Made by a program: the position numbers and the translations under genes. Below, piece by piece: positions 1,044 to 3,946 of a DNA stretch of 64,000 bases. Origin of the DNA: Patellaria atrata CBS 101060. Taxonomy: Eukaryota. Within the stretch, counting starts at the first letter, position 1, and every line of letters begins with the position of its first letter. The stretch covers positions 1,137,301 to 1,201,300 of the forward strand of contig MU006093.1 in NCBI GenBank assembly GCA_010093705.1, in the 5' to 3' direction. The notes beneath the pieces were generated by a model. That model saw only the letters and a program-made list of their open reading frames with translations. It did no database searches and was not told the DNA's origin.

Positions 1044-2015
1044 ATGAATCCAGAGTAGTACGTCGCCCTGTTTTAGAAAACCTCCGCTCACCTTCTGGGC
1101 GGTGTGTTGCATGTTCTGATGTGCTCACTACCTTGATAACGAAGCTGACCTGTATTCTTTAGAGTATAAACGAAGATTCAAACCTGTTGACCCCATCATG
1201 CGTTCTACCTTTTCCGTGGTTGATGATGCTGATATTATTCCGACGTAAAGATACGATTATCTCTTCAAGCTGCTCTTGATCGGAGATTCCGGTGTAGGAA
1301 AATCTTGTCTGCTCTTGAGGTTTGCAGATGATACCTATACCGAGAGCTACATTTCCACCATCGGAGTCGATTTCGTGCGTCGACCTTGTGAAATGCTTCC
1401 GACGGACTGGTACTGATGGAGATGATAGAAAATCCGTACAATCGAGCTGGACGGAAAGACTGTGAAACTCCAGATCGTATGTACCATGAAATCGAACAGC
1501 TGAGGAAGGCATAACTTATAGTGATTTTCCAGTGGGATACTGCCGGCCAGGAGCGCTTCCGCACAATCACCTCCTCGTACTACCGCGGAGCACACGGCAT
1601 TTGCGTTGTCTATGATGTGACGGACATGGACTCGTTCAACAACGTGAAGCAGTGGCTACAAGAGATTGACAGGTATGCCACAGAGGGTGTCAACAAACTC
1701 TTGGTGGGCAACAAGTCAGATATGGCCGACAAGAAGGTTGTGGAGTACACAGTAGCAAAGGTATTGTCATATTGAATGATCTTAGATTGTCATCGCTTGC
1801 ATGTTACTAACAGTGACAAGGAATTCGCGGACAGTCTTGGTATCCCCTTCCTCGAAACATCCGCCAAGAACGCATCCAATGTCGAGCAAGCTTTCTTAAC
1901 CATGGCCAGGCAAATCAAGGAGCGTATGGGCACTACCGCTGTTAATAACAAGCCCACCGTCCCCATCGGCCAAGGTCAAGGTGTACAATCCGGTTCGGCC
2001 GGTGGATGCTGTTAA
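1044..2015 (+). CDS. YPT1: Rab1-family GTPase Ypt1; exons 1044-1054, 1251-1374, 1429-1476, 1533-1760, 1821-2015
   Basis: [38 protein letters not shown] and C-terminal GGCC prenylation motif. Confidence 0.97.
1055..1250 (+). other. Complex first intron of ypt1: predicted stwintron, inner intron 1058-1162 inside the outer donor
   Basis: GTA|GTACGT...GCTGAC...TTTAG|AGT...GCTGAT...AAG. Removing the inner intron reconstitutes GTAAGT. Confidence 0.8.
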
Positions 2016-2628: not shown

Positions 2629-3946
2629 ATGTCGCGTTCGACAGATCCAGGACACTTTTTCCAGACGTCGTATGTGTGCCCCTCTTTGAATTGAGAACCC
2701 CACTTCTTTAACCCCCATATTCTAAAAATCGATGTCACCAGTGTCTCACTCTCAGAAGCGGAGCGCAAAGCCAAAAAGAGCAGCAACAACAATGGGATTC
2801 CAATAAAGCTGCGTTCAAAGATCCTCGCCGTAGCCACGGACCCAGACGACACGGATGCGATATACGTCGCCGAGGCCGCGGGCACGGTGAAGAAACTGAG
2901 CCTCGAAGTGTGTAAGAGCTCTTTTCAACCTAATACCTTAACATACTTCCTCCACTGCAGTCCAACTAACCCCTTCTGCTCGGTATCAGAATTCCAAAAC
3001 AACACTCCTCCTCACCGGTCCCACCGCCCCCTTGACCTCCCTCGCCCTCTCCACCCCAACCCCCGCCTGTAGCTCCACTCGCACCCTCTTTGCCGGCTGC
3101 TGGGACAAGGCGATATATTCCTGGCAACTCCCCTACAATACCCGCGGCCGCACCTTCGTCGGCCACGCCGACTTCGTCAAGACCCTCCTCTTCGTGCCCC
3201 TGCCCGGCCGCGATGTCCTCCTCTCCGGCGCCGCGGACGGCGCCATCTTCGTCTGGGACGTCGCGAGCGGCGCGAAGTTGAGCGAGCTGAAGGGACACGA
3301 GAGGGGTGTGTTGGCGCTGACGCTGGATCCGGTGTTGGGCGACGAGGGGAAGAGTGTTGTCGTGTGGAGCGCGGACAGCGTGCGCGAGATCAGGGGATGG
3401 TCCGTCGGCGTCGAGGGCGGCGACGTCGTTGCGAAGTCTCTGGATCCCCAGGCCCCAATAGTCGCGCATGAAACCAGCGTTAATGCGCTTCGCTTTGACG
3501 CTGATGGTGACTTGTGGACTGCGAGCAGCGATAAGACGGTCAAGTGCTTGAGTCGGGAACGCGGTTGGGCTGAGGAGATGAGCTTGTCGCATCCGGATTT
3601 CGTGAGGGATGTTGTCGTGGATGAGCGGGGTGGGTTCGTCGTGACAGCTTGTAGGGATGAGGAGGTTAGGGTGTGGGAGAGGGGTTCGGGCGAGTTGCGT
3701 CATACATTCAGCGGCCACTTTGAAGAGGTTACAGGGTTGTTGCTACTGGGCCAGCTGGTGGTATCGATCTCTATTGATGCGACGGTACGGCGCTGGAGTC
3801 TTGCGCCTGAGGACTTGCGACAGGCGAGGTTGGACGCGGAGAGGGCGGCTAAGGGAGAGGTGAAGGAAGAAGATAAGCCGAAGGAGTCATTGATGACGGA
3901 GGAAGAGGAGAGAGAACTGGCGGAGCTGATGGATGAGAGCGATTAG
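2629..3946 (+). CDS. WD40-repeat protein; about 3 exons (2629-2669, 2742-2907, 2990-3946)
   Basis: Repeated GH...WD units (FVGHADFV, LKGHERGV, FSGHFEEV, IFVWD, VRVWE). Upstream exons join in frame through GT-AG introns. Confidence 0.85.

Follow-up and report, generated by a model that had tools for sequence, protein, structure and literature searches.

A predicted [D3,4] spliceosomal twin intron in ypt1 of Patellaria atrata and recurrence of its nested layout among ypt1 orthologues

A stretch of 64,000 nucleotides (nt) from Patellaria atrata CBS 101060 (GenBank assembly GCA_010093705.1, contig MU006093.1, positions 1,137,301 to 1,201,300 of the forward strand), referred to here as the window, contains the gene ypt1, whose first intervening sequence is the subject of this work. 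The gene lies on the + strand and consists of five exons. When these are joined, a frame remains open for 201 codons which on direct translation specifies a Ypt1/Rab1 GTPase. Exon 1 (1044-1054; ATGAATCCAGA) comprises the ATG, codons 2 and 3 and the first two bases of the codon for Glu4 (M N P E), and is directly followed by GTAGTACGT. Exon 2 (1251-1374) supplies the last base of Glu4 and then runs from YDYLFK to GVDF. Exon 3 (1429-1476) is followed by exon 4 (1533-1760), which holds the Ras-family core (Pfam Ras PF00071, E 1.8e-28), and by exon 5 (1821-2015), which encodes the C-terminal CC motif and includes the stop codon. Introns 2 (1375-1428, 54 nt, GTGCGT ... TAG) and 3 (1477-1532, 56 nt, GTATGT ... 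CAG) are ordinary; intron 4 (1761-1820, 60 nt) has the donor GTATTG, which is preceded by exonic AAG and lacks a G at position +5.

Exon 1 reaches exon 2 only via removal of the first intervening sequence (1055-1250, 196 nt), as the open 201-codon frame needs position 1054 to be joined to 1251. This sequence starts with GTAGTA (1055-1060), of which the GTA at 1055-1057 would represent the 5' piece (nt 1-3) of a split outer donor. Behind it lies a putative inner intron of 105 nt (1058-1162) with the donor GTACGT (1058-1063), the branch sequence GCTGAC (1144-1149, branch A at 1148) and the acceptor TAG (1160-1162, within a TTTAG ending at 1162). The AGT that comes next (1163-1165) would be the 3' piece (nt 4-6) of the split donor, and together with 1055-1057 it yields GTAAGT. 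The remainder of the predicted outer intron (1163-1250) measures 88 nt, or 91 nt including 1055-1057 (3 + 88), and contains a branch sequence of its own, GCTGAT (1228-1233, branch A at 1232), as well as the acceptor AAG (1248-1250). All of these elements are on the + strand. By direct reading, a stop follows the fourth codon in three RNAs, namely the unspliced RNA (GAG TAG), the RNA that lacks the inner intron only (GAG TAA), and the RNA in which the inner donor at 1058 is joined to the outer acceptor at 1250 (GAG TAA).

Orthologues were obtained by scanning metagenome contigs for AG followed by a fully degenerate back-translation of the exon 2 start, with the 5' end of the intron left unspecified. 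This donor-blind scan yielded at least 111 ypt1 loci, and all orthologue counts given below rest on the matches listed. Within 700 nt upstream of exon 2 the scanned loci were inspected for the sequence ATGAAYCCNGA, and 94 of the 111 listed loci carry an exon of this sequence immediately ahead of the intervening sequence; its two degenerate positions both vary synonymously. Together with the window these 94 loci make up 95 sequences, in which 83 distinct intervening sequences were recognised, that of the window included. As the scan pattern cannot find intron-less genes, loss of the entire intron is invisible in this survey, whereas reversion to a plain intron is visible. Introns 2, 3 and 4 of ypt1 from the same loci served as controls (230 distinct sequences of 46-121 nt, median 59 nt; G at +5 present in 213 and absent in 17). 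A donor matrix was built from these 230 introns, the lowest of which scored -1.0 bits, and dinucleotide shuffles of the interior (200 rounds) were used as the null model. Survey counts are not probabilities, because the sequences share descent and the shuffles ignore it.

The first intervening sequence was never short. Its length ranged from 145 to 541 nt with a median of 179 nt among the 83 distinct sequences, which is about three times that of the control introns. A start consisting of GTN followed by GT was present in 81 of the 83 intervening sequences and in none of the 230 control donors; in the 80 sequences classed as [D3,4], i.e. with the outer donor split between nt 3 and 4, the first three bases were GTA (49), GTG (25), GTC (5) or GTT (1). 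The GTAGTA of the window scored -1.7 bits and thus fell under all 230 control donors, and the 6-mer at the exon boundary was below every control donor in 80 of 83 cases. Located 3 nt further in, the next 6-mer attained at least the 5th percentile of the controls in 81 of the 83 sequences, and the corresponding inner donor of the window, GTACGT, scored 9.7 bits, the maximum among the controls. The rebuilt donor GTAAGT of the window reached 8.5 bits with the control matrix. Across the orthologues the best rebuilt donor was at or above the 5th percentile of the controls in 75 of 83 sequences, as compared with a mean of 25.8 and a maximum of 36 in shuffles.

The internal 3' splice site was assessed with criteria of different stringency (a slash marks a splice boundary). 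A strict test, which required AG, GTN/WGY and a YTRAY branch with both sub-introns at least 40 nt long, was passed by 72 of the 83 sequences (shuffles: mean 7.7, maximum 17), and a YAG/NG acceptor with a CTRAY branch was found in 79 (shuffles: mean 5.0, maximum 12). When the inner acceptor was called blind, by taking the first CTRAY and then the first AG, the next bases were NGY in 68 of 83 sequences at a background of 0.115. For a single sequence of 196 nt, a nested 3' splice site alone arises by chance in about 9% of dinucleotide shuffles; the pattern exceeds chance because the arrangement recurs in 72 to 80 of the 83 distinct orthologous sequences, depending on the criterion.

An equivalent of the inner intron was found in 80 of the 83 distinct sequences, and the rebuilt donor had a G at +5 in 80 of 83. 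Among the 80 [D3,4] sequences the inner acceptor was CAG in 62 and TAG in 18, and the triplet following it was AGT (55), AGC (12), TGT (5), CGT (3), GGT (3) or AGA (2). Inner units were 54-183 nt long (median 88) and outer units 78-424 nt (median 101). A CTRAY branch was present in all 80 called inner introns, with a median distance between branch A and acceptor of 15 nt (interquartile range 14-17) as compared with 12 nt in the controls; 72 of the 83 sequences had a YTRAY branch 5-45 nt ahead of the final acceptor. The interiors could not be aligned with one another. Their median pairwise identity of 0.56 equals the level that a lenient global alignment gives for unrelated sequence, and the best match of the window's intervening sequence had an identity of 0.61. 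Single linkage at 70% identity or more produced 61 clusters, of which 53 passed the strict test and 58 had a G at +5. A plain intron at this position was not present among the 83 distinct sequences listed.

The positions that an earlier note, based on the letters of the window, had assigned to the feature at 1044-1260 all agreed with direct reading of the sequence, and so did its three statements on stop codons after Glu4. That note had also proposed a donor split between nt 3 and 4 with obligatory splicing in two ordered steps, and had recommended an alignment of ypt1 for a conserved GTA-GTRYGT...YAG-AGT. In the comparison described above the layout did recur, and it lends the proposed split and order strong, if sequence-derived, support. 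The note had treated the feature as a trait of one gene in one genome; according to the survey it is a widespread property of ypt1.

The sequences that deviate from the common form were inspected individually. In three of them (L045, L067 and L091) the rebuilt [D3,4] donor has no G at +5. L067 reads GT/GTGAGT ... CAG/ATGT, a nesting of the [D2,3] kind, and the protein tail encoded by this locus reaches no more than 61% identity with the named panel members. L091 reads GTATG/GTATGT ... TAG/T, a nesting that resembles [D5,6]; GTATGG, the 6-mer with which it starts, would also be an acceptable donor alone. That L067 and L091 nest in other registers argues that it is the nesting and not the GTNGT motif that is kept. 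A further seven sequences (L024, L096, L100, L029, L030, L106 and L053) failed the strict test solely on account of the rebuilt donors GTACGT, GTGGGT, GTAGGT or GTAAGA.

Seventeen listed loci had no match to ATGAAYCCNGA, and most of them are truncated. Five of the 17 (L026, L048, L061, L052 and L095, the last a duplicate of L052) share the layout but possess another first exon; the alternative first exons M-Q-P-E, M-V-T-P-E and M-A-S-Q-E precede the same GTG+GTRNGN ... YAG/AGT. In L018 and L071 the contig ends at exon 1, and GTR+GT ... CAG/AGT is visible. In L032, L073, L081 and L085 it ends inside the inner intron, with CTRAY ... YAG/AGT visible, and in L086 it ends in the outer part. The upstream sequence was too short for classification in five of the 17. 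The locus with the M-A-S-Q-E first exon (L048) is a divergent Rab1-like gene on a 345-kb contig; it shows GTG/GTAAGT ... CAG/AGT nesting and has its intron 2 at the same position as ypt1. Several residues of its exon 2 are different, and the gene could represent either a paralogue or a distant lineage. In L054 and L086 an open reading frame (ORF) of approximately 60 codons within the outer part, which is 424 nt long in L054, runs in frame into exon 2. Aligned with gaps of codon size, this ORF shows 50-57% identity to the N-terminal extensions found in two ypt1 models of Apiospora (P0104, P0105); it may represent an alternative first exon, used by some Sordariomycetes, or a common annotation artefact.

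For an estimate of the phylogenetic breadth, the last exon of 57 loci was compared with 37 named proteins, bearing in mind that a tail of 64 residues places a locus only roughly and that one common C-terminal tail occurs in several classes. Tails identical (100%) to those of Rhypophila (Sordariales; L012), Paraphaeosphaeria (Pleosporales; L042, L063, L070 and L074) and Cudoniella (Helotiales; L010 and L068) were found, and the tail of L064 was 98% identical to that of Aspergillus. The window's own tail is 98% identical over 64 amino acids (aa) to a model of Saccharata proteae (Botryosphaeriales). By this placement the nested layout spans at least four classes, and filamentous ascomycetes have probably inherited it stably, as a feature of ypt1, over a long time. 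In addition, the first exon of locus L061 encodes M-N-S-E and is located some 470 nt ahead of exon 2, and the gene has no other intron; the named protein nearest to it is YPT1 of Sugiyamaella lignohabitans (84%; Saccharomycotina, Dipodascales). Its layout consists of GTA/GTAAGT, an inner unit of approximately 400 nt ending ACACTAAC ... TAG, then AGT and an outer unit of 57 nt. On account of this one contig the layout may predate the Pezizomycotina, with a probable presence in one or more budding-yeast-like lineages. Gene models deposited for Yarrowia, Saitoella and Sugiyamaella include translated sequence from the 3' end of an intron at this very site, which marks the intron position as old.

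Public ypt1 models of named fungi are 159 to 300 residues long instead of the expected number of about 201. Only six of the 35 listed representatives from named Pezizomycotina begin with M-N-P-E-Y-D-Y-L-F-K. The remaining ones are truncated, contain invented upstream exons or have the intron translated, as in a Curvularia model starting M-N-P-E-W-Y-V, which is a reading of GA GTG GTA YGT. These figures are not a rate, as the list consists of score-ranked cluster representatives of at least 134 residues and is biased accordingly. Wrong N-termini of this kind (models among P0031-P0120, and P0123, P0130 and P0131) fit an intron that gene finders cannot model. The list also includes a Logan-derived ORF (P0113; 260 aa, 1221-nt contig) in which introns 2-4 are spliced out and 63 codons are kept upstream of exon 2. 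For its N-terminal part no tblastn match was obtained in any listed locus. It may derive from a partly spliced ypt1 transcript, be it pre-mRNA or an intermediate.

Upstream of ypt1 the window contains the 3' end of a mitochondrial-carrier gene (20-382, + strand; PF00153, E 4e-16), and downstream a gene with WD40 repeats (2942-3946, + strand). A search of the whole window with Rfam gave no match, and hence no known RNA gene is located inside the ypt1 introns. Several other candidates in the region of the first intervening sequence were discarded: a minus-strand ORF at 1159-1515, which is antisense to coding exons and without support; an inner acceptor at 1076, which would leave a 19-nt intron and is too short; a splice from 1055 to the acceptor at 1162, which leaves no donor; and a donor at 1164, which yields a stop.

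We interpret the sequence at 1055-1250 as a donor-disrupted spliceosomal twin intron (stwintron) of type [D3,4] at the first coding intron position of ypt1, and assign a probability of roughly 0.78 to this interpretation. Its anatomy is that of a [D3,4] element, it recurs in orthologues far above the level of shuffles, and the outer 6-mer is weak. A canonical inner donor, branch and acceptor are present in the window and in the orthologues. In silico, the inner intron lies inside a 6-nt outer donor whose boundary 6-mer is predicted to be non-functional, and its removal would rebuild a canonical outer donor. The outer unit has its own branch and acceptor and, with 91 nt in the window, a workable size. 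The authors who described stwintrons use a detectable intermediate that lacks only the inner intron as their experimental criterion (PMC5639578, PMC7138796).

Splicing of such an element would proceed as follows. By intron definition, the strong donor GTACGT at 1058 would pair with the nearest 3' splice site (A at 1148, TAG at 1160-1162), and 105 nt would leave. The GTA at 1055-1057 would thereby meet the AGT at 1163-1165, giving the donor GTAAGT, the sole good one that reaches exon 2 in frame. In a second reaction this donor would be used with the branch A at 1232 and the AAG ending at 1250, so that 91 nt would leave and position 1054 would be joined to 1251, resulting in the N-terminus M-N-P-E-Y-D-Y-L-F-K. 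The order would be built in, because there is no outer donor until the inner intron has gone, and we infer that the two reactions take place in this sequence in vivo and that a one-step route is negligible. In human GTNGTN donors the binding strength of U1 predicts the preferred site in 88% of cases (PMC1779574), and by this rule use of the inner donor is predicted for ypt1. As to the origin of the element, forms such as GTA+GTAAGT and GTG+GTGAGT have the appearance of an ordinary donor whose first 3 nt were duplicated, and donor duplication is the route of 'stwintronisation' put forward for Lipomyces (PMC7138796).

The rival explanation with the best claim is that of a one-step tandem donor with a spacing of 3 nt (delta-3, GYNGYN), in which U1 docks at 1058, cleavage occurs at 1055 and all 196 nt are taken out at once with the branch at 1232 and the acceptor at 1250, the internal branch and acceptor remaining idle. 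GTNGTN donors with both GU sites in use are known from animals and plants (PMC1779574), in STAT3 the choice of site is independent of the exact position of U1 (PMC11162779), the donor GTATTG of ypt1 intron 4 works without a G at +5, and the GTN+GT motif expected at the exon boundary is kept in 81 of the 83 orthologous sequences. We nevertheless consider this explanation unlikely. It leaves unexplained why CTRAY and YAG/NG occur in 79 of 83 unalignable sequences as compared with 5.0 in shuffles, why the intervening sequence has a minimum of 145 nt when the control median is 59 nt, and why L067 and L091 are nested without the delta-3 motif. According to the GYNGYN survey the site with stronger U1 pairing is preferred, which here is the inner donor (PMC1779574), and the two viable mRNAs 3 nt apart that characterise tandem donors are not encoded, as the downstream GU joined to 1250 gives GAG TAA. 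Improbable, and somewhat more so, is a regulated gate as suggested in the earlier note, in which the two-step route would compete with a dead-end splice from 1058 to 1250 (M-N-P-E-stop) and nonsense-mediated mRNA decay would set the dosage of Ypt1. Retention of GTN does put a stop (TAA, TAG or TGA) right after Glu4 in 77 of 83 sequences, and joining of the inner donor to the distal acceptor was reported as a splicing error of [D1,2] stwintrons (PMC12403724); yet the GTC and GTT forms (6 of 83) give a one-residue insertion and no stop. The first base of exon 2 (1251), the third of the Glu4 codon, is A in 82 of 83 sequences, although other Glu codons favour GAG (66:15 and 44:31). A gate does not account for this preference, because a stop would likewise arise after GTA if exon 2 began with G. 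A simpler reason would be that G turns the exon 2 start into a donor-like GTAYGA (GTACGA and GTATGA are among the control donors), and the A suggests selection against a cryptic donor at the acceptor. Finally, the nested signals might be fortuitous or the gene model wrong, the true N-terminus lying elsewhere and 1044-1054 not being an exon, in line with the many public models that start otherwise (M-N-P-E-Y-D-Y-L-F-K opening only the six of 35 mentioned above). This we regard as highly implausible: ATGAAYCCNGA stands directly before GTN in 94 of 111 listed loci and shows synonymous changes at each of its degenerate positions, public models that deviate are intron read-throughs such as the Curvularia N-terminus, and chance is excluded by the shuffle controls.

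Several observations weigh against the [D3,4] stwintron. The intron 4 donor GTATTG shows that the organism tolerates the absence of G at +5, and a one-step route from 1055 is mechanistically possible, because cleavage 3 nt off the U1 register has been documented for human delta-3 donors (PMC11162779). Where the first triplet is GTC (five sequences) or GTT (one), the donors that are rebuilt are weak (GTCAGT, GTTAGA). At the inner acceptor L045 reads TCG instead of the TAG of L081, a near-identical relative. The difference stems either from an error in the contig or from natural variation, in which case the first splicing step should be blocked. The control matrix represents three intron positions of one gene, the survey covers only the matches listed (at least 111 loci), and the metagenome contigs compared are related to one another, a kinship that the shuffles do not preserve. 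The runs that contain the stretch, two sequencing runs of a single sample that are not on record as RNA, provided one unspliced, DNA-like contig each over 900-2400, with no joints; both contigs are identical to the window and are probably its source.

A more far-reaching proposal would rank the ypt1 [D3,4] stwintron among the oldest and most stable nested spliceosomal introns, predating the split between filamentous ascomycetes and some budding yeasts, spliced obligatorily in two steps and kept for a function, with no reversion to a plain intron among the sequences listed. We hold this to be speculative and rather doubtful. If it were true, a candidate function would be that of a kinetic or fidelity checkpoint on an essential, dosage-sensitive GTPase, failure of which would lead to a four-residue dead-end product. 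Irrespective of function, the case concerns a universal, essential housekeeping gene in several fungal classes, whereas most described stwintrons are young, lineage-specific [D1,2] copies. Because this housekeeping gene is common to several classes, it offers a convenient, alignable model for the origin and persistence of nested introns. It also provides a natural test of intron-definition pairing versus the use of a delta-3 tandem donor. On the practical side, a simple rule, GTN plus a canonical intron plus NGY, would correct the N-termini of ypt1 in public models.

In the recursive (ratchet-point) splicing of long animal introns, successive reactions use the donor of the upstream exon first, and a donor is regenerated at AG/GT. 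Stepwise removal of an intron and regeneration of a donor at the junction are common to this process and the pathway predicted for ypt1. In ypt1, by contrast, the first reaction would spare the exon, and the donor would be rebuilt from two intronic halves. The group II/III twintrons of Euglena plastids, named as an analogue in PMC7138796, are likewise introns within introns with an obligatory order of removal, but they are self-splicing organellar ribozymes and not spliceosomal, and bear no sequence relation to ypt1. GYNGYN tandem donors resemble ypt1 in having two GU 3 nt apart at the exon end, with the motif becoming intronic when the upstream GU is used (PMC1779574, PMC11162779). These donors involve one splicing step, two mRNAs that differ by 3 nt and no conserved internal 3' splice site; in ypt1 the downstream GU together with the final acceptor leads to a stop in 77 of 83 sequences, and an internal 3' splice site is conserved. 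In the reticulon-like introns of Lipomyces, of types [D6,7] and [D7,8], two donor elements stand side by side, or almost so, at the 5' end, as in ypt1, and a small donor duplication combined with a maturing internal 3' splice site was proposed there under the term 'stwintronisation' (PMC7138796). However, the first donor of the Lipomyces introns is intact ('sensu lato'), and L. starkeyi can use one step (PMC7138796), whereas the first 6-mer of ypt1 lies under all 230 control donors in 80 of 83 sequences.

The known systems closest to the ypt1 element are the fungal [D] stwintrons described by Flipphi, Fekete, Ag, Karaffa, Scazzocchio and co-workers (PMC7138796, PMC5639578, PMC12403724). In both, a U2 intron lies inside a 6-nt donor, the outer donor arises only after removal of the inner intron, and each unit has its own branch and acceptor; both reside in nuclear genes of filamentous ascomycetes and came to notice since the obvious gene model needs an impossible donor. 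Losses of the inner intron from the bioDA [D2,3] stwintron, which is ancient, number five or more, and in classes that diverged early its position is occupied by a plain intron (PMC5639578); for ypt1 no such loss was seen in the 83 distinct sequences listed. The types demonstrated comprise [D1,2], [D2,3], [D5,6] and [A2,3] from earlier work, to which [D4,5], [D6,7] and [D7,8] were added (PMC7138796, 2020). Nearly all stwintrons found are of type [D1,2] and other types are rarely met (PMC12403724, 2025). In the accessible stwintron literature, which excludes the 2013 and 2015 papers in Fungal Genetics and Biology and supplements, [D3,4] is not among the demonstrated types, and within the accessible texts on stwintrons and on ypt1 introns no case in a ypt, Rab or GTPase gene is reported. 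This accords with the earlier note, which gave no previous case of a split between donor nt 3 and 4 or of a stwintron in ypt1 and asked for a check of the literature. A [D3,4] stwintron is therefore likely not to have been described previously, and it would fill the missing type in a donor-disrupted series whose other positions have been demonstrated. From [D1,2], [D2,3], [D4,5] and [D5,6] the ypt1 element, as predicted from sequence, differs by its split at donor nt 3/4 and by its host gene. The kind of element, a stwintron, is already known; what is probably new is the [D3,4] subtype, ypt1 as its host and the wide conservation.

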